A DNA stretch of 64,000 nucleotides from Mobula hypostoma (taxonomy: Eukaryota), in NCBI RefSeq assembly GCF_963921235.1, contig NC_086097.1, forward strand, positions 23,066,001 through 23,130,000, written 5' to 3'. Numbering within the stretch: the stretch's first letter is position 1; every line of letters begins with the position of its first letter. The position numbers and the translations under genes were made by a program. The notes beneath the pieces were generated by a model. That model did not search any database. It saw only the letters and a list, made by a program, of their open reading frames with translations, and had not been told where the DNA came from. Below are positions 2,167 through 61,783 of the stretch, piece by piece.

Positions 2167-2194
2167 TACATTGAAACACGCAGTGAAATGCACT

Positions 2195-2389
2195 CACGAG
2201 GAAATCTGCAGATGCTGGAAATTCAAGCAACACACATCAAAGTTGCTGGTGAACGCAGCAGGCCAGGCAGCACCTCTAAGAAGAGGTACAGTCGACGTTT
2301 CGGGACGAAGGGTCTCGGCCCGAAACGTCGACTGTGCCTCTTCTTAGAGATGCTGCCTGGCCCGCTGCGTTCACCAGCAACTTTGATGT
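2195..2389. mobile_element. Penelope-terminus-derived fold-back mini-element with partial hammerhead motif
   Basis: About 75-bp inverted arms; exact 12-bp TSD gtgaaatgcact (2183-2194 / 2390-2401); sequence nearly identical to the Penelope terminus at 61607-61700. Confidence 0.85.
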
Positions 2390-3154
2390 GTGAAATGCAC
2401 TGTTAGCATCAGCAACCAACACAGTCCGAGGATGTGCTGGGAGCAGCTGGCCAGTGTCATCGTATTTCCGGCACCAGCATAGCATGCTCACAGATTACTA
2501 ACCCCAACCTATACATCTTTGCAATGTGGGAGGAAACCAGAGCACCCAGAGGAAACCCATGCGTTTATGGATAGAACGTTCAAACTCCTTACAGACACTG
2601 GTGGGAGTTGACCTTGGATCGCTGGCACTGTAACCATTATTCTATACGCGATGTTTCTGTGCCACCCCAGCTGAATGGGCCACTGTAAATTGTCCTCAGT
2701 GTGTAGATGAGTGGTAGTGCCTCCCTAACCTGCTGAGTACCTACAACACCTTGTTTATATTCACTCTGGATTCCAGGATCTTGTGTCCTCTAGGCTGAGA
2801 TTATTTTATTTGGAATAGAGAAGGCTGAGTGAGATTTAATGGAAATGTATAAGATTTGGAGGGATCTCGGCAGGGTGAACAACAAAGGAATGAAACAGAG
2901 AATGCTGGAAATAGTCAACAGATCAGACAGCATCAGTTGGGAGAGAGCTGACATTTCAGGCTAATGACCTTACTGAGAAATGCCAGAAATCAAAAAACTC
3001 TAATTTTAAATACCAGAGATTTTTCAGGTGCTGGAAATTTTTGAGCAACACACACAAAATTCTGGAGGAACTCAACAGGTCAGGCAACCTCTTTGGACCG
3101 GAAATGAATAGTCGATGTTTCAGGTTAAGTTCCTTCATTAGACACCCACCTCAA

Positions 3155-4005
3155 GATTGTTTGATTCAAGATTATTTAATGTCGTTTCTTGTAAGCAAGT
3201 GTAAGAACAAATTAATTGTTACCCCATATCCATTGCAACACATAAACCCACAAAAGATAAAGAACATAATAATAATAATAATAATTTAAGACACACACAA
3301 TAAAGACATCTGATCACTTGTATACATAGATTGATTACAGGTCCTTAAAGTGACGCTAGGATGTACGTAAGGTGACTGACAGGAAATAAAGTAATGGTGG
3401 AGTTACACATATCAAATTTGCTGGTGAACGCAGACTTGGCCCGAAACGTTGACTGTACCTCTTCCTAGAGGTGCTGCCTGGCCTGCTGCATTCACCAGCA
3501 AATTTGATGTGTGTTGCTTGAATTTCCAGCATCTGCAGAATTCCTCGTGTAATGGTGGAGTTAGTGGGTGGAGATGTTAATCAGTCTTACTGCTTGGGGA
3601 AAGTAACTGTTTTTGAGTCTAGTAGTCCTGGCATAGATGCTACACAGCCTCCTCCCCGATGGGAGTGAGGCAAACAGTCTATGAGCAGGGTGGGTGCGAT
3701 CCTTCATGATGTTACTGGCCCTTTTTTTGGCACCTTTCTGTATGTACATCCTTGACAGTGGGTAGCCTGGTGCTAGTGATGCGTTGGGCAGTTTTGACTA
3801 CCTGTTGTAGAGCCTTGCTGTTCTCCACAGTGCAGTTTCCGTACCAAGCAGTGATGCATATAGTTAAGATGCTCCCTACTGCGTATCTGTAGAATGATGT
3901 GAGTATGGATGTGCAAAGCCCAGCTCTCTTCATTCTCCCCAAAAAGTAGAGCATCAATGAACTTTCTTGACTGTGTAGGATGTGTTCTAGGACTATGAAA
4001 ACACA
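3155..4005 (-). mobile_element. Rex1/Babar-type LINE 3' fragment (interrupted at 3406-3548)
   Basis: Minus-strand ORF pieces SILTICITAWYGNCT, LQQVVKTAQRI, LPSGRR, RLKNSYFPQAVRLIN. Confidence 0.8.
3406..3548 (+). mobile_element. Penelope-terminus-derived fold-back mini-element
   Basis: Exact 15-bp TSD gtaatggtggagtta (3391-3405 / 3549-3563); short inverted arm followed by ggcccgaaacgttgactg and the common tail. Confidence 0.85.
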
Positions 4006-4709
4006 TCTTACATTTCCCCCTCACTTGGTTTCACTTAACATCGGCCAACTTGTGCTTTTTCCCCTCTTCAACTTTCTTATTCTAGTTTCTTCCCTCTTCC
4101 TGGTGAAAGGCCTTAGTCCCAAATAATGACTGATTATTCCCCTCCAATGATGCTGCCTGACCTTCTGAGTTCCTCCAGGATCTCCTGTGTTTGTTGTGAA
4201 TTTCCACCATCTGTAGAAACTCTTGTGTTTTGATGATGTTCAGGTAGTCAAGTAGCATTTGTGAAGAAAGATAGCGAGTTAACTGAAGCAAGATAAACAT
4301 GTCAGCTGAATTGGTTCAAACCAGGGGTTTTGGTTCACATGAGCAATTTATCACTCTAATTCCTTCTTCCAAATTGCATTGATCTCACTCCTGACCTGTA
4401 TAGCCCCAGTTACTCTTCCACTCACCTGCCACCCTGCTACAATTAAGAGTCTCCTTGTGTACCAAGCCTGGCTTAGTTGAGAGCAGGCTTGCCTTCGAAT
4501 CCAAAACCTCTGATTGATGATTCAATGCAGTGTTGCTAGATTATATTTCATTTTCTGTCTCTGACTGACATGAAAGATCAAGGCAGTATTTAGAAACTCT
4601 TCAGGATTTCTTTTAAAATTACCAATATTACTCGATTCAATGACTTCACGTATTTCTATTCTCACCAGTATAAGTGGTTGTCTTATATCTATGCCCATTC
4701 CATTATGTC

Positions 4710-10698: not shown

Positions 10699-11661
10699 CC
10701 CCTTATACAATATATCTGAAAAAAACTTCTGATATCCTTTGTTATTTTATTGGCTAGCTCACCTTCATGTTTCATCTTTCCTCTCTTTGTGGCTTTTTAG
10801 TTGCCTTCTGCTGGTTTTTAAAAGCCTCCCAATCCTCTAACTTCCATGTAATTTTTTTCTCTTATATATGCTCTCTCTTGAGATTTTATGCTGTCTTTGA
10901 CTTCCGTTGTCAGCCATGGTTGTATCCCTTTAAAATATTTTATCGTTGGCATGTATCTATCCTGCGCCTTTCAAATTCCCAGGAAACTCCAGCCATTAAT
11001 GTTCTACTGTAATCCCTGCTAATGTGCCCTTCCAATCAATTTTGGCCAGGTCTTGTCTCATGCCTCTGTAATTCCCTTTACTCTGCTGTAATAACGATAC
11101 ATCTGACTTTAGCTTCTCCCTCTCAGACTGCAAGGTGAATGCTATCATATTATGATCACTGCCTCCTAAAGGTTCCTTTATCTTATCAAATCTGGTTCAT
11201 TACACAACACCCAATCCAGAATTGTCTCTGCTTATAACCTCAACCACAAGCTGCTCTACAAAGCCATCCTTTAAGTATGCTACAAATTCCTTCTCTTGGG
11301 ACTCAGCACCAACCTGATTTTCCCAACCTACCCGAATATTGAAACTCCCATAGTTATCATAATATTACCCTTTTGACATATATTTTATATCTCCTTTTGC
11401 AATTTATATTGCATATCCTGCTTACTGTTTGAAGGCTGCAGTATAACTCTCATCAGGGTCTTTTTCCCTTGCAGTTTCTTAACTCTCACCTACAAAGTTT
11501 CTACAACTTCCAATCCAAAGAATTTGATTTCATTTTTACCAACAAAGCCACCTACTCCCTTTGCCCAGCTGCCTGCCCTTTCAAAGCAAATGATAGGATG
11601 TAAAGCTCCCAACTATGATCTTCTTTCAACCATGACTCAGTGATGCCCACAATGTCATACC

Positions 11662-13854
11662 AGTGGCATGAGAGAGGAACTGGCCAAAGTTGACTGGAAA
11701 GAGACACTGGCGGGAAAGACGGCAGAGCAGCAGTGGCTGGAGTTTATGCAAGAAATGAGGAATGTGCAAGACAGGTATATTCCAAAAAAGAAGAAATTTT
11801 CGAGTGGAAAAAGGATGCAACCGTGGTTGACAAGAGAAGTCAAAGCCAAAGTTAAAGCTAAGGAGAGGGCATACAAGGAAGCAAAAATTAGTGGGAAGGC
11901 AGAGAATTGGGAAGTCTTTAAAACCTTACAAAAGGAAACCAAGAAGGTCATTAAGAGAGAAAAGATTAACTATGAAAGGAAACTAGCAAATAATATCAAA
12001 GAGGATACTAAAAGCTTTTTCAAGTATATAAAGAGTAAAAGACAGGTGAGAGTAGATACAGGACTGATAGAAAATGATACTGGAGAAATTGTAATGGGAG
12101 ATGAGGACTTGGCAGAGGAACTGAACAAGTATTTTGCATCAGTCTTCACTGAGGAAGACAGCAGGATACCGGACACTCAAGGGTGGCAGGGAAGAGAAGT
12201 GTGCGCAGTCACAATTACGACAGAGAAAGTACTCAGGAAGCTGAATAGGCTAAAGGTCGATAAATCTCCTGGACCAGATGGAATGCACCCTCGTGTTCTG
12301 AAGGAAGTAGCTGTGGAGATTGCGGGGGCATTAGCGATGATCTTTCAAAAGTCGATAGATTCTGGCATGGTTCTGGAAGACTGGAAGATTGCAAATGTCA
12401 CTCCGCTATTTAAGAAGGGGGAAAGGAAGCAAAAAGGAAATTATAGACCTGTTAGCTTGATGTCGGTGGTTGGGAAGTTGTTGGAGTTGATTGTCAAGGA
12501 TGAGGTTACAGAGTACCTGGAGGCATATGACAAGATAGGCAGAACTCAGCATGGATTCCTTAAAGGAAAATCCTGCCTGACAAACCTATTACAATTTTTT
12601 GAGGAAATTACCAGTAGGCTAGACAAGGGAGATGCAGTGGATGTTGTATATTTGGATTTTCAGAAGGCCTTTGACAAGGTGCCACACATGAGGCTACTTA
12701 ACAAGATAAGAGCCCATGGAATTACAGGAAAGTTACATACGTGGATAGAGCGTTGGCTGATTGGCAGGAAACAGAGAGTGGGAATAAAGGGATCCTATTC
12801 TGGTTGGCTGCCGGTTACCAGTGGTGTTCCACAGGGATCAGTGTTGGGGCTGCTTCTTTCTACATTGTACATCAACGATTTGGATTATGGAATAGATGGC
12901 ATTGTGGCTAAGTTTGCTGACGATACAAAGATAGGTGGAGGGGCCGGTAGTGCTGAGGAAACGGAGAGTCTGCAGAGAGACTTGGATAGATTGGAAGAAT
13001 GGGCAGAGAAGTGGCAAATGAAGTACAATGTTGGAAAGCGTATGGTTATGCACTTTGGCAGAAAAAATAAACGGGCAGACTATTATTTAAATAGGGAAAG
13101 AATTCAAAGTTCTGAGATGCAACGGGACTTGGGAGTCCTCGTACAGGATTCCCTTAAAGTTAACCTCCAGGTTGAGTCAGTAGTGAAGAAGGCGAATGCA
13201 ATGTTGGCATTCATTTCTAGAGGAATAGAGTATATGAGCAGGGATGTGATGTTGAGGCTCTATAAGGCGCTGGTGAGACCTCACTTGGAGTACTGTGGGC
13301 AGTTTTGGTCTCCTTATTTAAGAAAGGATGTGCTGACGTTGGAGAGGGTACAGAGAAGATTCACTAGAATGATTCCGGGAATGAGAGGGTTAACATATGA
13401 GGAACGTTTGTCCGCTCTTGGACTGTATTCCTTGGAGATTAGAAGAATGAGGGGAGACCTCATAGAAACATTTTGAATGTTAAAAGGCATGGACAGAGTG
13501 GAGGTGGCAAAGTTGTTTCCCATGATGGGGGAGTCTAGTACGAGAGGGCATGACTTCAGGATTGAAGGGCGCCCTTTCAGAACAGAAATGCGAAAAAATT
13601 TTTTTAGTCAGAGGGTGGTGAATCTATGGAATTTGTTGCCACGGGCAGCTGTGGAGGCCAAGTCATTGGGTGTATTTAAGGCAGAGATTGATAGGTATCT
13701 GAGTAGCCAGGGCATCAAAGGTTATGGTGAGAAGGCGGGGCAGTGGGACTAAATAGGATAAAATGGATCAGCTCATGATAAAATGGCGGAGCAGACTCGA
13801 TGGGCTGAATGGCTTACTTCTGCTCCTTTGTCTTATGGTCTTATGGTCTTATGG
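11662..13854 (+). mobile_element. Young 5'-truncated CR1 LINE inserted antisense into older CR1
   Basis: Long open RT frame, CR1 3' UTR and (tcttatgg)3 tail; host CR1 sequence resumes on both sides. Confidence 0.92.
11668..13752 (+). pseudogene. CR1 ORF2 reverse transcriptase (endonuclease lost by 5' truncation; single in-frame TGA at 13474-13476)
   Basis: KSPGPDG, NYRPVSL, YLDFQKAFDKV, SGVPQGSVLG, FADD and DLGV motifs; the 13477-13752 ORF continues in the same frame. Confidence 0.9.
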
Positions 13855-29478: not shown

Positions 29479-30055
29479 CAGTACTGAGAAGTCTTCGGCA
29501 CATATCCAGCCCTGAGAAACCAGGCAAGGTTATTTGATTCCTAACAATTGGTTAATCAATCATTACAGAATATCTTTCTGGTGTTTCCCACTCCCTCCCT
29601 TCTCCCTTTCCCTTTTCCCAACCATGATTCTCCTGTCCCTGCCCTTTTCCCACTCTCAGTCCACAATAGAGACCAATATCAGAATCAGACTCAAGATGCT
29701 GGAAGAACTCAGCAGGCCAGGCAGCATCGATGGAAACGAGGAAACAGCCGACATTTCAGGCTGAGACCCTTCATCGGGGTCTTGGCCCAAAACATTGACT
29801 GTTTACTCTTTTCCATAGATGCTGCCTGACCTGCTGAGTTCTTCCAGCATTTTGTGGATGTTGCTTGGATTTCCAGCATCAACAGATTTTCTCATATCAG
29901 AATCAGATTTATCATCACTCACATCTCACATATGTCCCGAAATTTGTTGATTTTTTGTGGCAGCAGTACAGTACAATACATAAAATTACAGTACTGTGCA
30001 AAGGTCTTGGGGAGCCTATTTATATATATGTGCCTAAGACTTTTGCACAGTACAT
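29479..30055. mobile_element. Composite Tc1-type non-autonomous element (copy 1), interrupted by a Penelope fold-back
   Basis: TA-cagtactg left end; complete mini-MITE (29989-30055) as right end; cargo shared with 31920-32366 and 41033-41536. Confidence 0.75.
29690..29893. mobile_element. Penelope-terminus-derived fold-back mini-element
   Basis: Exact 14-bp TSD atatcagaatcaga (29676-89 / 29894-907); inverted arms meet within the hammerhead motif. Confidence 0.85.
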
Positions 30056-33284: not shown

Positions 33285-33816
33285 CTTCCATGGGCTTTTG
33301 CCCTCTCCTTTTAGATTCCTCCTTCTCCAGCCCTTTATCTCTTTCACTAATTGACTTCCCAGCTCTTTACTTCACCCCTTCCCCTCTGCCGGTTTCAACA
33401 TCCACCTTGTACTTCTTCCTGCCCTCCCCCACCATCTTACTCTGACCTCATCTTTTCTCTCCAGTCCTGATGAAGGGTCTCGTCCCAAAACGTCTTCCTT
33501 TTACTCTTTTCCGTAGAGGCTGCCTGGCCTGCTTAGTTCCTCCAGCATTTTGTGTGCGTTGCTTAGGGTTTCCAACATCTCCCGATTTTTCTCATGCCTG
33601 TGATTGTTATTTGATAGTTTTTGTTGAGTTTTCTGTGTGACAAACATCCGCTGCATGTCTTTCATGGCTGCTGTTCAAGACGTACACCTCTGACTGTAAC
33701 ATAAATATAAGACATCACAAAAGGAATATGTAAGGCACAATATAAATCTAATTCCTCTTCTTCTGACAGTCATTGAGCTTATTTCGATGCAGAGGGGTGG
33801 AATGCACAAGTGACAG

Positions 33817-34042
33817 TACTCTGCCTTCAAACTGTCTTCACACTACTGAGAATCCTGCGATTAACTCTCTACTCTGCCTTCAAACTGCCTTCACACTACT
33901 GAGAATCCTACGATTAACTCTCTACACTTGCCCTCAAACTGCCTTCACACTACTGAGAATCCTATGATTAACTCCCTACTCTGCCTTCAAACTTGAAGGC
34001 AGAACAGAGGGTTAATCACAGGATTCTTAGAAGGGTGAAGAA
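33817..34042. repeat. 53-bp tandem repeat (3 copies plus partial) followed by an inverted copy
   Basis: tactctgccttcaaactgccttcacactactgagaatcct.cgattaactctc starts at 33817, 33870, 33923 and 33977; 33993-34042 is the reverse complement of the unit. Confidence 0.85.
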
Positions 34043-44783: not shown

Positions 44784-46039
44784 CTCCAAAGCTAAAAGCC
44801 GTAGTTCGCTCTAACTTTCCTCATCAGATATTCTGTCCAATCCAGGAGGCATCCTGGTAAATCTCCTCCACAACTTCTCTATAGCTTCCACATCCTTCCT
44901 ATAATGACATGACCAGAAATGATCACAATACTCCAAACAAATTAATAATTATTTAAGAAGCATTTGGATAGGTAGATGCAGGGGGAGGGTGGTGTAGTTG
45001 GTGCTTGGAATGATATGAGCTGAGTGCATGAAATTAGGACTAGCTAGGTGGACATCTTGAGGCCCTTCAGCCCATTGAGTCCATGCCAAACCTGTTGCCT
45101 ATATTCATGCTGTATTTCTCTATGACTGTATGAAAAAGTTCAAAGGAAATTTTATTGTCAAAGTACGTTTATGTCGATGAAAGATCAACCAGAGTGCAGA
45201 AGACAACAAACTCTGCAAGTGCAAATATAAATAAGTAGCAATAAGCAATGAGAACATGAGATAATGAGATAAAGAAAAGTGAGATCATTGGTTGTTTGAA
45301 CATGTCAATGGATGGGCAACTGAATGTAATTATCCCCTTTTGTTCAACAGCCTGATGGTTCAACTGTTTTTGAACCTGGTGGTGTGTGTCCTGAGGCTCT
45401 TGTGCCTTCTACCTGATGGCATCAGTGTGAAGAGAGCATGGCCTGGTTGGTGGGGATCTTTGATGCTGAATGCTGTTTTCTTACGCTGTAGCTGCCTTCA
45501 AAACATGGACTTAAGCAGGTTTTCTTGGTCTCAGTTGTGCTATAACTGAAGTGGCTCATGTAATAGAAATAGTGTTTCCTAATCGATCAATCCTGTTGTA
45601 CCAATTCACATTATAGCAGAACTATCTTGATGTATTATTGGCTACAAATGACCACATAGATCACATGATGATGATGAAATGGGAGTTGTTCCTTGTGCTC
45701 AGAACATTTCGCCAAGCTCTTGGCTGTTTGGCATTTTGGCACAAAACAAAAAAAAGGCATTTGAATGACTGATATAAAAGAGAATACTTCCTTTCATATC
45801 ACTTGAAAAAGGCCTACTTGTTTAGATATACCTTTAGTAAAGAGAAAACAGCAAAATAAGACAACATGGGTGGGGGGTGGATATCTTCACAGAACGCTGG
45901 AGAAACTCAGTGGGTCAGGCAGCATCTATGGAGGAGAACAAGCAGCCAACATTTTGGGCCAAGACCTTTCATCAGGATTGGAAGGGAAAGGGGCAGAAAG
46001 ATTTACAGCATCTGCAAAATCTTTTATGTCTATAATGAT

Positions 46040-52600: not shown

Positions 52601-53633
52601 CTGTAGGTTGTGGGAATGTTGTTTGCAAATTGGTTCCCACATTGCAATGATCACCACAGAAGTGCTTCATTGCTTAAAGGGCTAAAGGATGTCATAACGA
52701 TGCATAAGGTATCAGGTAGTGCAGGGTTTATTTTGTCATTAACTCAGTCATTTGTCTCCCATCCTCTCTGTGTATGACAATCTATTATTATGTTCTTGTC
52801 AACAAAATTTTTGAGATATGTGTCGGCTTTGACTCTTATCCCCTGATAATTCTCATGGAAGTGGCATGTTAGAAGATCAGACATATCTTTGGAGAACGTT
52901 GGAGACAGCTGAAGGACCAGAAGTCATAAGTTTCTTCCTTTTCTAATTTTATTATGAAGGAAAATTTATGGCAAGTAGCAGCAGTTGACATTTGCCCTGG
53001 TAATATAGGGCAATATGGCTCATAGAAATGCTTCTTGAGTCGAATGAACCTAATTTCCTAAACTAAGAGCTTTTTTCATTTGGACCTGACTCATAGGATG
53101 TCTTACCTGTGATGAGCTGCATTCATTTTTTAGATTCAAGCACCACCTAATTTCTTCTCTCTCCTTAAACTTTTGATACTCCTTCCTAAACCAAAGTCAA
53201 AAAAGTAGAGTGTAGATTATGTATTATTCCACAAACGGACAAAATGCCTTCTTCATGACATGTATTTTAGACCTCAAGACCATAGGACATAGGAACAGAA
53301 TTAGGCCATTCAGCCCATCAATTCTGCCCCATCAGGACTGATTTATTACCTCTCTCATCCCCATTCTCCTGACTTCTCCCCTTAACATTTGGCACACTTA
53401 CTAATCAAGAACATAACTTCGGCTTTAAGTATACCCAATGACTTGGCCTCCACAGTTGTCTAATAGCACTGAATTCTGAGGACTTCCGGTAGCGCTCATG
53501 GAGTGAAGTCGCGTTCTTGACTCGCTCCATTACCTCTGAGTTTTTTCTCTCTATGGTCAGCTATACTTTAATTAACTATTAAGGCATCAATTTTTACAAT
53601 ACTTTGAATTAAACTGAATTCTCTGACAATTGG

Positions 53634-54533
53634 ATGATACTGAGATCGGCTATGTCTAAGAACGGGAAAGACGGCAAGGATGGTAAACCTCCGGTTAAAC
53701 CGAAAGCTACGGATCTCCCTCCGACTGAATCACCGGTGACTTTGGAAGCTATATCGGAGTTAATTCAGAGGGAAATTTCAACCTCTGTTAGGGAGATGAT
53801 TCGTACAGAAATTATGGGCTCTGTTAAAGACCTGATTCATATGGAAATCTCAACTAAGTTCCAGAAAATTGCCGACTTAATTGATAAGATGCAAACATGT
53901 ATTGCGGAACATCAGTCGGCTATATCTGGTCTTCAAAAATCCGCGCAACAAAGTGAGCTTAAGATGGGGAAAGTCGAAGAAACAATTAATGTAATGAAGA
54001 AGAAACTTGACTTTTTGACTTTTAAAAACTCTGACTTGGAATCTAGAATGCGACGGCAGAATTTACGAATGATTGGCGTCAGGGAAGCCGTGGAAGCTAA
54101 CAACCCTATGAAATATTTCTCCCAACTTTTAAAAGATGCATTCCCTACTGTATTTCCTGACCAACCACCGCTACTGGATCGTGTTCACAGAATCCCATCA
54201 TACTCGTCTAGGTCAGATAGACCTAGGCATGTTATCTTACGTTTTCATTACTTTCAAGACAAGGAGAGACTGTTTCGATTCGCTCGATCTAAAGGTTTCA
54301 TTGATTTTTCGGATCTTAAGTTCCGATTCGTGGAAGATTTCAGTAAACCAATCTGGGACCAACGGGTCCGTTACAGATCCGTGATGTCGGAATTCTATAA
54401 GATGGATTTAAGACCAGCGCTGCTGTACCCTGCACGTCTAAGGATTCGCATGTTAGATGGAGCTCTTCGTTTTTTTGATTCTCCATCGGATGCCCAGAGT
54501 TATCTGGATCAACTTTCATCTTCAACATCTTAA
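53634..54533 (+). CDS. L1 ORF1p (coiled coil + RRM + CTD nucleic-acid chaperone)
   Basis: 299 aa; heptad region, DLESRMRRQNLRMIGVRE, LDRVHRI, RPRHVILRFH, EDFS and LLYPARLRI motifs of L1 ORF1. Confidence 0.95.
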   Translation: MILRSAMSKNGKDGKDGKPPVKPKATDLPPTESPVTLEAISELIQREISTSVREMIRTEIMGSVKDLIHMEISTKFQKIADLIDKMQTCIAEHQSAISGLQKSAQQSELKMGKVEETINVMKKKLDFLTFKNSDLESRMRRQNLRMIGVREAVEANNPMKYFSQLLKDAFPTVFPDQPPLLDRVHRIPSYSSRSDRPRHVILRFHYFQDKERLFRFARSKGFIDFSDLKFRFVEDFSKPIWDQRVRYRSVMSEFYKMDLRPALLYPARLRIRMLDGALRFFDSPSDAQSYLDQLSSSTS

Positions 54534-55255
54534 TTGCCTTTTTTTAATTTTCTCCGTTGATCGGAGGCTGTGAATTGGTTGGTTTTAACTTTTCTGTGCC
54601 CTATTTGGGCAGAAAAGTTTACTTTTGATTTCTTAATATGGCTGCTAAACTTTCTTTTTAACTGCGTCATTTCTTTCTTTTCCCAGGGGATTCTGGGTGG
54701 TTACTTCCCTTTTGTCATCTTACGTATTTCCTGTGCGGCCTTAAATTTTGTAGTTTTTTTTTAAATTTTATTCTGTTTTGCTTTTTATAATCATTTTATG
54801 TTAATAATCCTATTTTTTTTGTTGCTGTGTCTATTCATGAGTTTGAGGTTTATTGTGGTTTTTTTTTAATATATACTTTCCGGCTTTTGTTCTGTTCTGT
54901 GTGTATTTTAATTGAGCTAACTTTTTTTTACTTATTTTTTTTACTGTTTTACAATTAGCTGATCCTTTTCATATTTATACCTTTTTTTTAGGGAGCGTAT
55001 ACCGGAAGTCATGGGGGTAGTTTTAGCGCTTGCTTCTTTCTGGCGGGTCTGCTTTAGATTTCGCCTTGGGGTCCTGGGGTGGGGGGTGGTGGGAGGGGCT
55101 TCACGTTTTAGTTTGTTTCTCTTTGGGCTATATACATTATTGAAGTATTGGTTACGTCCTTTTCCCCGGTATCTTTTGTATGTTCTGTTTCCTCTCCGGG
55201 TCTGTGGGTCGCGCCTATTGTCAATCCTCCTTGTTATGGGTTGACTTTAGGATTT

Positions 55256-58200
55256 ATGGAGTCTATTATTAATTTTGTCTCCTGGAATACTAATGGTCTT
55301 AATCATCCTATTAAAAGGAAAAAAGTTTTTAAAGTGTTCCGGAGACTTAAAGCACAAATTTTATTTTTACAAGAGACCCATGTACGGAGGGGGGACAGAC
55401 TACGTTTTTTCAAATTTTGGAAGGGACAACAATTTCATTCGAACTCCAATGCTAAGATTCGAGGCGTCTCTATTTTTATAGACTCCTCAGTTACTTTTAT
55501 ACAACAGGATATTATCTCTGATCCGAATGGTAGATTTTTATTGGTTAGTGGTTTATTATTTAATAAAAAAGTAGTTTTGGTTAATGTTTATGCTCCTAAT
55601 ATGGATTGTCCGGAATTTTATAAATCATTGTTTGATCAGTTTCCGAATTTGAATGAGTTTTCATTGATTTGGGGCGGAGATCTTAATACCTGTTTATCTC
55701 CAGCTTTGGACCGTTCGGCTCCTTTACGGACTTTACCTAATAAATCTGCAAATTTGATTAATTTTTTCCTTTCTGATTCTGGGTCGACGGACATTTGGCG
55801 TTTTCTGCATCCTCAGGAAAAAGATTTTTCCTTCTTTTCACATGTTCATCATTCCTATTCAAGAATTGATTATTTTTTCATTGATTCTCGTCTCATTCCT
55901 TCAGTGATTAAATGTGATTATGATTCTATAACCATTTCGGATCATGCTCCACTTAAGCTTTCTATTAAAATTATGGCCAATATACCAAACAATAGACAAT
56001 GGCGTTTTAATTCGCTGTTGCTTCAGGACTCGGACTTTGTTAATTTTATGAATGAACAGATTGAGCTTTTTTTTACAATTAACCATACAGAAGATATTTC
56101 GGTTAACACTCTTTGGGACACTTTTAAAGCCTATATTCGGGGTCAGATTATTTCGTATTCCGTTGCTTTGAGGAAGAAACAGAAGCAGGAGGAGATGGTA
56201 ATTGTGGACAAGATTAAAGAAATTGATAAGAAATATGTTATGGCTCCTTCTGAGGAGCTATACAAACAAAGAACTGAACTTCAAATGGAACACAGTTTAC
56301 TACTCTCGTCCTCGATTGTAAACCAATTAAAGAAAACAAGAAGTGATTTTTATGTTCACAGTGATAAAATTGGCAAGCTGCTGGCTAATCAATTGAAATC
56401 TAATTATGTTAAATCTCAAATCAATCAGATTTATAACCAAAATGATCGATTGATATTGGATCATGTGGGGATTAATCAAACCTTTTGTGATTTTTATTCT
56501 TCTTTATACCAATCAGAGTCTCCTCGAGATTCTAAATATATGAATGATTTTTTAGATAAGTTAGACTTCCCTCTGATTTCACAGGATATGTCTTCTTTAT
56601 TAGATACTTCCATTACAATGGATGAGATTAAGAATGTTATTTTTTCTATGAATCTGGGGAAAGCTCCTGGCCCTGATGGGTTTACCGTTGAATTTTATAA
56701 ATGTTTTGCTTCTTTATTGATTCCTTGGCTCTATAAGGTTTTTGAGGCTTCTTTGAAACTTGGTAAACTTCCGGAATCTTTTAATAGAGCATCAATTTCT
56801 TTAATACTAAAGAAGGATAAAGACCCTGCTCAATGTGCATCTTATAGACCAATATCTTTATTAAATGTTGATTCTAAAGTTTTTTCTAAGTTATTAGCAA
56901 ATAGACTAGAAAAAGTACTTCCTTCTATTATTTCGGAAGACCAAACGGGTTTTATTAAAGGTCGTTACTCTTTTTATAATATTCGTACATTGTTAAATAT
57001 CGTTTATACTCCCTCACAAAATGTTCCTGAGTGTGTTATTTCTTTAGATGCCGAGAAAGCTTTTGATAGAGTAGAATGGCCTTATTTATTTAAGGTGCTT
57101 GAAATGTTTAATTTTAGCTTGAAATTTATATCCTGGATTAAACTGTTATATTACTCCCCTGTAGCCTCGGTTCGTACTAACTCCTTAAACTCACCTTTTT
57201 TTCCTCTCTTTCGTGGTACTCGACAAGGCTGTCCTCTTAGTCCCCTATTATTTGATATTGCATTAGAACCTCTTGCAATTGCTATTCGAGAATCTTTAAA
57301 TATTACTGGGATAACTCGGGGATTAAAGTCCCATAAATTATCACTCTATGCTGATGATTTACTTTTATATATTTCTAATCCTGAGAGATCCATTCCTGCT
57401 GTTTTAGAGTTATTAGCACAATTTGGTCTTTTCTCAGGTTATAAATTAAATCTTAGTAAGAGTGAACTTTTTCCGATTAATAAACATCTTCCCTTATATT
57501 ATAAATTTCCATTTAAATTGATTAATAATTACTTTTCATATCTTGGGATTAAAATTACTTGTAAACATAAAGATTTATTTAAGACTAACTTTTTACCATT
57601 AATAGACCATATTACTCAACTTTCATCTAAATGGTTTCCCTTATATTTAACTTTGATTGGTCGTATTAATGCAGTTAAGATGTTTTTTTTGCCAAAATTT
57701 TTATATGTGTTTCAGGCATTACCAATTTTCGTTCCTAAATCTTTTTTTGATAAAGTTGACTCTAAAATTTCTTCATTTATTTGGCAGAACAAGAATCCGA
57801 GACTGGGTAAAATACATTTACAGAAAGCTAAGAGAGATGGAGGTTTAGCATTACCTAACTTTAGATTTTATTATTGGGCTATTAATATTCGACATATGAA
57901 ATTTTGGTTACTTGACCGGGACATACTATTTATTCCTAAATGGGTAGCATTGGAATTACAATCTGTTCAGGGTTATACACTTGGTTCTATTTTAGGTTCC
58001 TCTCTTCCTTTTGATTCGAAACGTCTTAAGCAGGTCTCTAACCCGATAGTTAAATATGCTTTGCGCATTTGGTTTCAATTCAGAAAATTTTTTGATCTTA
58101 ATCAATTCGGGTTAGCGATTCCTATTTTAGGTAACATATTTTTTCCTCCCTCTTTTACGGATCGCGCTTTTCAAACTTGGAAGACTAAGGGTATTTTACG

Positions 58201-59032
58201 GTTTTTGGATTTATTTTTAGATGGTTCCCTTATGTCTTTTGAACAATTATCTAATAAATATAACTTATCAAGAATACATTTTTTTAGATATTTACAAGTT
58301 AGAAATTTCCTAAGTACTATACTTACTTCCTTTCCAATGCTTCCTCCTATATATATTTTAGATTCGATAATTAACCTTAATCCATGTCAGAAAGGTGCAT
58401 CGGCTATGATTTATAATATTATTATGAAACTTAGGAAAGCTCCATTTGATAAGATTAGGGTAGATTGGGAACAGGAATTGGGGCTTACCATTTCTGTGGA
58501 TGATTGGGGGCAGATTTTACAATTAGTTAATACTTCCTCTATTTGTGCTAAACATTCCCTAATTCAATTTAAAGTGGTTCATAGAGCACATATGTCCAAA
58601 GATAAGTTAGCGCGTTTTTACTCGCATATTAATCCTTTCTGTGATAGATGTTCGGGGCAGATAGCCTCTTTAACTCATATGTTTTGGTCTTGTCCTACTT
58701 TGGAAACTTTTTGGAGAGATATTTTCAATATTATTTCTAAGGTATTAAATATAGATATCTCTCCTCACCCTATTACTGCTATCTTTGGACTACCTAAAAT
58801 TTCTAGTAATCTTTCCCCTTCAGCCCGTAGAATGATTGCATTTCTTACTTTAATGGCGAAAAGATGTATTTTACAACATTGGAAAGAGCTTAATGCTCCA
58901 ACTACCTTTTTTTGGTTTTCTCAGACGATTTTATGTTTGAATCTGGAGAAAATTAGAAGTAACCTTTATGATTCTTCATTTAAATTTGAACAGATTTGGG
59001 GACCTTTTATTCGATATTTTCATTTAATGTAA
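55256..59032 (+). CDS. L1 ORF2p (APE endonuclease, reverse transcriptase, C-terminal zinc knuckle), 1258 aa from first ATG
   Basis: SWNTNGLN, LQETH, NVYAPN, GGDLN, SRIDYFF, SDHAP; KAPGPDGF, YRPISLLN, LDAEKAFDRV, GTRQGCPLSP, YADD, YLGI; CDRC-x8-H-x4-C. Confidence 0.97.
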   Translation: MESIINFVSWNTNGLNHPIKRKKVFKVFRRLKAQILFLQETHVRRGDRLRFFKFWKGQQFHSNSNAKIRGVSIFIDSSVTFIQQDIISDPNGRFLLVSGLLFNKKVVLVNVYAPNMDCPEFYKSLFDQFPNLNEFSLIWGGDLNTCLSPALDRSAPLRTLPNKSANLINFFLSDSGSTDIWRFLHPQEKDFSFFSHVHHSYSRIDYFFIDSRLIPSVIKCDYDSITISDHAPLKLSIKIMANIPNNRQWRFNSLLLQDSDFVNFMNEQIELFFTINHTEDISVNTLWDTFKAYIRGQIISYSVALRKKQKQEEMVIVDKIKEIDKKYVMAPSEELYKQRTELQMEHSLLLSSSIVNQLKKTRSDFYVHSDKIGKLLANQLKSNYVKSQINQIYNQNDRLILDHVGINQTFCDFYSSLYQSESPRDSKYMNDFLDKLDFPLISQDMSSLLDTSITMDEIKNVIFSMNLGKAPGPDGFTVEFYKCFASLLIPWLYKVFEASLKLGKLPESFNRASISLILKKDKDPAQCASYRPISLLNVDSKVFSKLLANRLEKVLPSIISEDQTGFIKGRYSFYNIRTLLNIVYTPSQNVPECVISLDAEKAFDRVEWPYLFKVLEMFNFSLKFISWIKLLYYSPVASVRTNSLNSPFFPLFRGTRQGCPLSPLLFDIALEPLAIAIRESLNITGITRGLKSHKLSLYADDLLLYISNPERSIPAVLELLAQFGLFSGYKLNLSKSELFPINKHLPLYYKFPFKLINNYFSYLGIKITCKHKDLFKTNFLPLIDHITQLSSKWFPLYLTLIGRINAVKMFFLPKFLYVFQALPIFVPKSFFDKVDSKISSFIWQNKNPRLGKIHLQKAKRDGGLALPNFRFYYWAINIRHMKFWLLDRDILFIPKWVALELQSVQGYTLGSILGSSLPFDSKRLKQVSNPIVKYALRIWFQFRKFFDLNQFGLAIPILGNIFFPPSFTDRAFQTWKTKGILRFLDLFLDGSLMSFEQLSNKYNLSRIHFFRYLQVRNFLSTILTSFPMLPPIYILDSIINLNPCQKGASAMIYNIIMKLRKAPFDKIRVDWEQELGLTISVDDWGQILQLVNTSSICAKHSLIQFKVVHRAHMSKDKLARFYSHINPFCDRCSGQIASLTHMFWSCPTLETFWRDIFNIISKVLNIDISPHPITAIFGLPKISSNLSPSARRMIAFLTLMAKRCILQHWKELNAPTTFFWFSQTILCLNLEKIRSNLYDSSFKFEQIWGPFIRYFHLM

Positions 59033-60011: not shown

Positions 60012-60783
60012 AATATTTGATAGATTTCAGTGAGATCCCCCACATGCTTATAAACTCCAGTGAGTACAGAGCTATCAAACACTTCTCATACATAAACCCC
60101 TTCATTCCCAGGATCATTCTCGTGAACCTCCCCTGGACCCCTTCCAAAGCCATCATATCTATTTTCAAAGCATATAGATGTGAGTTCTCTCAGAGTCTAC
60201 TTTGCAACTGTGATAAGCTTTTGCTGTTCAATTACCAGAAGACATTTGGTGAACTTCCTCACGTGACGTTTTTAATTTGTGTTATCAAGTAGTAAGATGA
60301 AATACAGAGTTTATTTTGGGTAAAACACCCAAACAATCTACCTCATTGGGTGATGCATTTATTAAGAATTAATGCTTTCATATGTTGGTAAATTTAATGC
60401 TTTTATTTAGATATTTAAAAGATGAAAGTTTCTCAATGAAAACTCCAGCAAGGTGACATTGGTTTTGCCTATCTTTGTGAAGAATTTCTTGAGATCCTTT
60501 GAAGATTTAGCATTACAATCTGGGTGAATGGCTGTTGCAGGGAACAGTTTAGATGCCTGGCACGATGGTGATTCTATTAGTTTTGAATGGTTGGAAACCA
60601 ACCATGGTTGGTTGCGTTAACCATGCATCCAATTAGGATATAAAATACATATTTAGATAATCTATGGATTTACAGCTAATATGACACTGACATAACTTTG
60701 TTACTTCTATTATTGCTCACCTGTAAAATCAGGAAATATAGGTTGCCTCAAAACTGAACGTAAATGTTTTTTTATGCACATCT

Positions 60784-61304
60784 TTGCACATTTTTCCCTC
60801 CCCCGGCTCTGCTTTCCGCAGGGATCGCTCCCTACGCGACTCCCTTGTCCATTTGTCCCCCCCATCCCTCCCCACCGATCTCCCTCCTGGCACTTATCCT
60901 CGTAAGCGGAACAAGTGCTACACATGCCCTTACACTTCCTCCCTTACCACCATCCAGGGCCCCAGACAGTCCTTCCAGGTGAGGCGACACTTCACCTGTG
61001 AGTCGGCTGGGGTGATATACTGCATCCGGCGCTCCCAATGTGGCCTTCTATATATTGGTGAGACCCGATGGAGATTGGGAGATCGTTTTGCTGAACACCT
61101 ACGCTCTGTCCGCCAGAGAAAGCAGGATCTCCCAGTGGCCACACATTTTAATTCCACATCCTATTCTCATTCTGATATGTCTATCCACGGCCTCCTCTAC
61201 TGTAAAGGTTAAGCCACATTCAGGTTGAGGAACAACACCTTATATTCTGTCTGGGTAGCCTCCAACCTGATGGCATGAACATTGACTTCTCAAACTTCCG
61301 CTAA
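60784..61304 (+). pseudogene. PLE GIY-YIG endonuclease domain (disrupted near the C-terminus)
   Basis: FTCESAGVIYCI...CGLLYIGET...RFAEH...VATHFN, then EEQHLIFCLGSLQPDGMNIDFSNFR* in a shifted frame. Confidence 0.9.
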
Positions 61305-61599
61305 TGCCCCACCTCCCCCTCGTACCCCATCCGTTATTTATTTATAGACACACATTCTTTCTCTCTCTCTCCTGTTTCTCCCTCTATCCCTCTGACTATA
61401 CCCCCTGCCCATCCTCGGGTTCCCCCCCCCCGCCTTGTCTTTCTCCCTGGGCCTTCTGTCCCATGATCCTCTCATATCCCTTTTGCCTATCACCTATCCA
61501 GCTCTTGGCTCCATCCCTCCCCCTCCTGTCTTCTCCTATCATTTTGGATCTCCCCCTCCCCCTCCCACTTTCAAATCTCTTACTAGCTCTTCTTTCAGT

Positions 61600-61637
61600 T
61601 AGTCCTGACGAAGGGTCTCGGCCCGAAACGTCGACTG
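61600..61637 (+). ncRNA. Minimal type I hammerhead ribozyme (intact core)
   Basis: Stem I UAGUC/GACUG; core CUGACGA (61605-11) plus extra A; stem II GGGU/GCCC; GAAA (61625-28); loopless palindromic stem III ACGU; GUC cleavage triplet ending at 61632. Confidence 0.85.
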
Positions 61638-61783
61638 TACCTCTTCCTAGAGATGCTGCCTGGCCTGCTGCATTCACCAGCAACTTTGAGTTGTGTTGCA
61701 TAAATGTTTTCTGTATCTATTAGAGGTCGTTCAGTACTGAGAATCACGTATCTCTAGTCCTTGCAAAGAAGTCTTTCATTGTA

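Follow-up and report, generated by a model that had tools for sequence, protein, structure and literature searches.

Insertions of Penelope-like elements (PLEs) are commonly 5′-truncated, often have an inverted 5′-truncated copy beside the 5′ end, and carry a tail of 30–40 bp on one end (PMC8557442, PMC8969392). In rotifers, PLEs have been described with an inverted pLTR, a 31-bp tail, target-site duplications (TSDs) of 8–10 bp, and palindromes at the junctions, which the authors read as self-priming on an antisense template (PMC3846280). The purified PLE protein of the anole cuts and extends both target strands and uses unprocessed RNA, and in vitro it starts at two internal sites in the RNA, the spacing of which equals the tail (PMC11167929). 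The minimal hammerhead ribozymes of PLEs are characterized by an extra base after A9, a G10.1–C11.1 pair and a palindromic helix III, and in Schistosoma pairs of such motifs, on opposite strands and 100–700 bp apart, were read as truncated PLEs (PMC4209133).

The window (the whole 64,000-nt stretch of Mobula hypostoma DNA analyzed here) contains a 195-bp element at 2195–2389 between exact 12-bp direct repeats, GTGAAATGCACT, a sequence that was found at these two places only on either strand of the 64 kb. Among random position pairs with a spacing of 140–210 nt, 90 of 200,000 had an exact repeat of at least 12 nt near both ends, which is an upper bound, since the pool includes real TSDs. It is from the duplication alone that we infer insertion of the element. 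The inverted arms (2231–2308 and 2315–2392) are 78 nt long and 95% identical, and 71 of 74 positions agree when the arms are aligned pairwise. The first-pass annotation had described a 195-bp structure with inverted arms of about 75 bp meeting in a ribozyme motif, an exact 12-bp TSD, and loss of the CU of CUGANGA at the junction, all of which was borne out (arms of 74–78 nt). Absent from that account were 36–39 partnerless nucleotides at 2195–2230/33, which make the element asymmetric, three nucleotides (GTG) of the right TSD copy that double as element sequence, and an overlap of four out of five nucleotides between the arms at their junction. RNA of the + strand is predicted to fold into a single hairpin of −147.8 kcal/mol (z = −19.3; none of 200 shuffles matched), with 2195–2230 unpaired. 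Of the earlier suggestion that the element would give a long dsRNA hairpin if transcribed, the folding part is thus upheld by the prediction, and the transcription part stays conditional.

Positions within the PLE terminus are numbered from the ribozyme cut site (after GUC), and the features of the locus and its relatives are collected in Table 1. Arm A is 95.5% identical to 3440–3549 over 110 nt and 92.7% identical to the longer copy at 61618–61699, while arm B is 93.3% identical to 61607–61695 over 89 nt and extends 15 nt further into the ribozyme than arm A. Both outer ends of the element are end points used by other copies in the window and match the two start sites of reverse transcription observed in vitro (PMC11167929), and the tail of arm A is common to seven other tail-bearing termini among the 18 aligned. 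Both arms continue across the ribozyme cut site, which implies a template uncleaved at that point.

Table 1. Coordinates of the 195-bp element, its parts and the related copies in the window.
Feature	Position	Strand	Basis or remark
Left target-site duplication, 12 bp	2183–2194	+	Exact repeat of 2390–2401
Right target-site duplication, 12 bp	2390–2401	+	First 3 nt also match element
Arm A: 5′-truncated PLE 3′ terminus, +99 to −10, 110 nt	2195–2304	−	Sequence identity to copies
PLE "tail", arm A only, 36 nt (39 when the three TSD-shared nucleotides count as target)	2195–2230	−	Unpaired in fold
Arm B: inverted 5′-truncated copy, −25 to +60 (+63 with TSD-shared GTG)	2304–2389	+	
Head-to-head junction: arms overlap by 5 nt, one of them mismatched (arm A predicts GCCGA, the sequence reads GACGA)	2304–2308		
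Broken minimal hammerhead	2304–2334	+	Comparison with intact copy 61598–61640
Second fold-back, same subfamily as 2195–2389	3391–3563	+	15-nt flanking repeat at 3391 and 3549
Third fold-back, older subfamily	29676–29907	+	14-nt TSD at 29676 and 29894
Fourth two-piece copy: tail-less arm (− strand) joined to short inverted tail piece	45885–46020	.	Tail piece 46000–46016, BLAST
Longer 5′-truncated copy, same family: GIY-YIG fragment, 3′ UTR, intact hammerhead core 61605–61632	60761–61710	+	

The arrangement is that of the endonuclease-positive PLE unit as described in PMC8557442 and PMC3846280, with which it shares the head-to-head inverted copy, the one-ended tail (36–39 nt), a short TSD, 5′ truncation, offset junction arms and a minimal hammerhead in the terminus. 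It differs in that both pieces are no longer than about 110 nt; because both stop within this distance, the element retains neither an ORF nor a direct pLTR, and its ribozyme core is interrupted by the junction. The TSDs also differ from those described in rotifers, measuring 12–15 nt in the fold-backs of the window as against 8–10. We consider the 195-bp element to be an ordinary truncated PLE insertion, with a probability of about 0.9. It is the shortest form of the published PLE insertion layout and an ordinary product of a known class, and what is new here is a very short instance of that layout. One of the two options offered in the first-pass annotation had been that a very short piece of a PLE was inserted and inverted close to the ribozyme, and it is supported by this match. 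A class II MITE was rejected, since one arm is 36–39 nt longer than the other, the flanking repeats of the three fold-backs are 12, 15 and 14 nt long, and the sequence is that of a PLE terminus.

Arm B begins at G5 of the hammerhead core. The broken motif consists of G5–A9 (2304–2308), the extra A (2309), stem II (2310–2321), GAAAC-GUC (2322–2329) and the 3′ strand of stem I (2330–2334), and lacks C3, U4 and the 5′ strand of stem I. CUGANGA is absent from either strand of the element, and GAAACGUC is present on both. The ribozyme was called by inspection of motif and stems; Rfam returned no hammerhead among its six matches up to E = 1, and its psbJ and microRNA matches, which fell below the gathering score, were set aside as reflecting hairpins only. 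In the longer copy, the motif at 61598–61640 has the sequence features of a minimal type I PLE hammerhead, namely CUGANGA, an extra base between 9 and 10.1, G10.1–C11.1, GAAA, a palindromic 15.2–16.2 and a short stem I. Folding of this intact motif recovered stems I and II with a mispaired core, and the fold was no better than shuffles (z = −1.2). The dual minimal hammerheads reported from Schistosoma (PMC4209133) are likewise short, inverted, ribozyme-bearing PLE remnants; those motifs are complete enough for detection, whereas both are cut in the 195-bp element. A long pyrimidine tract ending in AG, which resembles a splice acceptor, lies just upstream of ribozyme stem I at 61570–61604 and at the equivalent place in older copies; in Drosophila Penelope, an intron ends at helix I (PMC4209133). 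The AG (about −31) was considered as a possible junction site; no fold-back arm matches it exactly.

By its sequence, the parent of the element is a Neptune/Nematis-type GIY-YIG PLE. The longer copy proper (60771–61700) ends near +67 without a tail, is flanked by a 10-nt repeat at 60761 and 61701, and has a terminus that is 93% identical to the fold-back arm over 89 nt. The GIY-YIG domain in its frame was detected by Pfam with an E-value of 0.0042 and 17.8 bits, under the curated cut-off of 22.6. A search of protein databases gave 31 relatives at E ≤ 1e−20, the closest being ray proteins with 83–89% identity. These relatives extend upstream into reverse transcriptase (RT) motifs (YIDD), with PF00078 on four of the 31, and the window copy is truncated before the RT. 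Both cysteines between GIY and YIG (the CCHH motif) are kept in relatives at 87%, and one is altered in the window copy; similarly, a C-x4-C-x2-C upstream of GIY-YIG is present in all six aligned relatives, its first cysteine being altered in the window copy. A CX2-5CxxC linker is described for Neptune and Nematis and as lacking from Penelope/Poseidon (PMC8557442), and the linker in the relatives therefore points to the former pair rather than the latter. Contigs of metagenomes, viruses and prokaryote genomes gave no match to the family motifs. Of the 24 rows listed in a search of sequencing runs, 20 contain the stretch or part of it and four contain at least half of its words; there was no RNA run among the matches listed. 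At the 5′ joint of the longer copy (60761–60800), the first 8 nt repeat the 3′ junction of this copy in reverse-complement form, and a 10-nt tandem duplication comes next. The 8-nt piece may represent a very short second arm, with ambiguous boundaries.

The 18 aligned termini in the window fall into eight with the tail, seven that end at about +58 to +68, and three that are unclear. These 3′ end classes were set by segment identities and BLAST ends, majority scoring being unreliable for the young subfamily. Fold-backs similar to the 195-bp element, with other junctions, had been noted in the first pass at 3406 and 29690, and both were confirmed. The second has a 29-nt inverted arm (+64 to +36) and a tail-bearing arm (−15 to +99), with no junction overlap and one unmatched base. 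In the third, the inverted arm runs from about +60 to −25/−28 and the tail-bearing arm from −19 to +96, and the junction has a 3-nt overlap if one A-to-G change is allowed. All three have one arm ending in each 3′ end class, tail and no tail, and target and element share 1–3 nt at several outer ends. No TSD was found for the fourth two-piece copy. Several degraded termini that belong to older, related PLE subfamilies are grouped within 2 kb of the 195-bp element (2700–3141 and 4086–4225).

Mapped against the GUC cut site, the arms end at −10/−25, −15/+36 and −19/about −26 at the junctions of the first, second and third fold-back, respectively. The cut site itself was discarded as the place of joining, as none of the six arm ends lies there. 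Neither of the two other fold-backs shares the junction of the 195-bp element, the junctions differ in all three, two subfamilies are involved, and the complete catalytic core is absent from both strands in each. These observations bear on the other option of the first-pass annotation, an independent non-autonomous fold-back family mobilized in trans. In such a family the 195-bp unit would itself be mobile, a ribozyme-dead hairpin retroposon that the PLE protein copies whole, in the manner of a MITE-like class I element. Non-autonomous derivatives of PLEs do exist (PMC8557442; preprint 10.64898/2026.07.22.740005), and the element keeps the region that holds both start sites. However, junctions that lie off the cleavage site and differ in three of three cases make a self-propagating family unlikely; in addition, both outer ends fall where copies of the parent family normally end, there are no tandem units like those of retrozymes, and the template would be a 78-bp duplex. 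Within the window, the evidence thus goes against such a family, and we regard both it and the mobile unit as very improbable. The non-LTR retrozymes of the preprint (10.64898/2026.07.22.740005) resemble the element in being small, non-coding and derived from a PLE pLTR, but their units are arrayed head to tail and each contains a complete type I hammerhead, and a retrozyme was rejected because the element is a single, head-to-head unit with a broken core.

The 13 copies that are not fold-backs have 5′ ends from about −28 to −852. A convincing TSD was found for one of the 13 and a clear inverted piece for one of the 13, most of these copies being old. The same 5′ ends bear on the possibility of later deletion, in which a longer PLE with inverted terminal repeats would have lost its middle by a microhomology-mediated event. 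PMC3846280 reports a derivative of a PLE in which inverted pLTRs and a 10-bp TSD are combined with an internal deletion mediated by microhomology, the junction overlap is compatible with such an origin, and a deletion of this kind would leave an identical sequence. Against it, three such short products lie within 64 kb, and plain 5′ truncation is usual for PLEs; together with the range of 5′ ends in the window, this leads one to expect short products from the first pass. Later deletion is therefore rated as improbable, and the preferred reading is that an endonuclease-positive PLE of the Neptune/Nematis type inserted once, as a very short copy that was dead on arrival.

For the formation of this insertion we favor, with moderate confidence, a two-primer route, by which two short cDNAs made from two target nicks would be joined head to head. 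The GIY-YIG endonuclease would nick both target strands 12 nt apart, and each free 3′ end would prime reverse transcription on uncleaved PLE RNA, one cDNA starting at an outer site (+99) and the other at an inner site (+60 to +63); nicking of both strands and the use of two start sites are taken from in vitro work in the literature. The 36–39 nt between the two start sites would then give the one-sided tail. Both cDNAs would terminate early, at 110 and 86–89 nt, and would be joined head to head, probably by annealing at a few matching bases in the self-complementary ribozyme sequence, after which repair would close the gaps and produce the 12-bp duplication. Anatomy, family and the two end classes are established by the sequence; that the two arms are these two cDNAs, and how they were joined, we infer. 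This route would explain why a TSD is present, why only one side carries a tail, why the ends fall into two classes and why the template was uncleaved. In L1 twin priming, two target ends prime two cDNAs, which are joined by microhomology to give an inversion inside one TSD; there, consecutive segments of a single RNA serve as templates for the two cDNAs, whereas the arms of the 195-bp element copy the same 70–75 nt, and a hairpin results.

The Poseidon element PAc of Anolis carolinensis (PMC11167929) shares with the window family two end classes that bound the tail downstream of the ribozyme, and read-through of the cut site. It belongs to another clade, the window family having the CX2-5CxxC linker, and this provenance of the in vitro data counts against the proposed route. 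PAc also prefers AT-rich ATT sites, while the target of the 195-bp element has 42% GC, and PMC11167929 does not show how the cDNAs are joined. On the − strand of 2195–2304, the inner end class (+60 to +64) coincides with the edge of the loop in a predicted stem-loop (z = −2.4; one of 200 shuffles matched), and the start of reverse transcription by the anole PLE is also within a stem-loop (PMC11167929). Also counted against two primers are the second fold-back, which lacks junction overlap, the three differences between the arms, the scarcity of TSDs and inverted pieces among the 13 other copies, and the equivalence of a later deletion in sequence.

Self-priming, as put forward in PMC3846280 for junction palindromes and head-to-head repeats, is the other route to be weighed: an antisense template (or one cDNA) would fold back at the ribozyme and prime the second arm, and the hairpin would integrate with a TSD. 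It would account for bases common to both arms; the third fold-back junction could form a hairpin of 3 bp with a 5-nt loop, and in two of the three fold-backs the loop is on the antisense arm, as expected from an antisense template. However, a cDNA from the inner site that copies itself cannot yield the tail, and one from the outer site predicts the wrong arm lengths in two of the three cases. In two of the three fold-backs, the arm coordinates place the tail on the arm with the shorter 5′ reach, which suggests that a simple snap-back of one cDNA is insufficient. Moreover, an antisense RNA ending at the inner start site would be required, while the starts at two sites in vitro are sense-templated. 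Self-priming is therefore considered unlikely, and joining of two separately primed cDNAs is preferred.

If two cDNAs of the same sense are joined, pairing between them is limited to self-complementary parts of the RNA; this may explain why the joints lie in the ribozyme core. It is tentatively possible, though doubtful at present, that in vivo the core acts, through its self-complementary bases, as a hot spot of cDNA joining. The interval −32 to −10 holds 5′ ends of six of 20 arms (1.4 expected, P = 0.002), four of 16 when one arm is taken per insertion (P = 0.013), and one of the 13 non-fold-back copies (P = 0.52), figures that serve as a lead only, as the interval was picked post hoc, the fold-backs were selected as short, and old ends are approximate.

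Base differences between arms and copies bear on the source of the template. At +15, both arms of the 195-bp element have a base in common that is lacking in two other young copies, and the two arms of the second fold-back share another base; such bases shared within an insertion point to one source template per insertion. At +21, however, arm A differs from its partner, arm B, and has the base found in the tail-bearing arm of the second fold-back, which counts against a common template and against the two-primer route. The base at this position (2273, 2350, 3471 and 61653) is G in the two young tail-bearing arms and A in the two young tail-less ends, and the G completes a small predicted hairpin. 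This two-against-two pattern may be due to chance or to the use of different pLTRs of the same RNA as templates. Transcript editing was rejected as the source of the arm differences: both changes private to arm B would have to be A-to-G, on opposite strands.

No account of mini fold-backs, or of this PLE family in rays or sharks, was found in a literature survey that covered mostly open-access papers. Copies this small display both priming sites and the joint in less than 200 bp, and provide clean material for the formation of inverted ends and tails in PLEs. A census of such minis in ray genomes could separate joining of two primed cDNAs from self-priming, and could carry the two-start-site result from Poseidon to a Neptune-type element. 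Should the ribozyme core indeed be a hot spot, the mini fold-backs would directly record, in the genome, how the cDNAs are joined during PLE insertion. If transcribed within host RNAs, their 75-bp duplexes could feed silencing or editing.

Several other features of the window were recorded. At 1777–2171, a short element with 30-nt inverted ends (83% identity) and TA at both outer ends stops 12 nt short of the left TSD that flanks the 195-bp element; it resembles a miniature element of the Tc1/mariner type. A 60-nt hairpin at 29992–30052 consists, by Rfam alignment, of the two inverted ends of that short element, separated by hardly any sequence. At 33810–34041, a unit of about 55 nt, unrelated to the PLE family, is repeated about three times head to tail, and one inverted copy follows directly. 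No host exon was recognized in the 57 of 81 stop-to-stop frames that were scanned (at least 95 aa, a length that short exons would escape); seven of the 57 had Pfam matches, six of them plainly to retroelement domains and one, weak, to ALKBH8_N. Among several LINE fragments, the one at 11644–13473 has an open frame of 610 aa that encodes a reverse transcriptase domain. An L1-like element at 53613–59029, possibly young, has two uninterrupted frames of 306 aa (Transposase_22) and 1306 aa (endonuclease, RT and zf-RVT).
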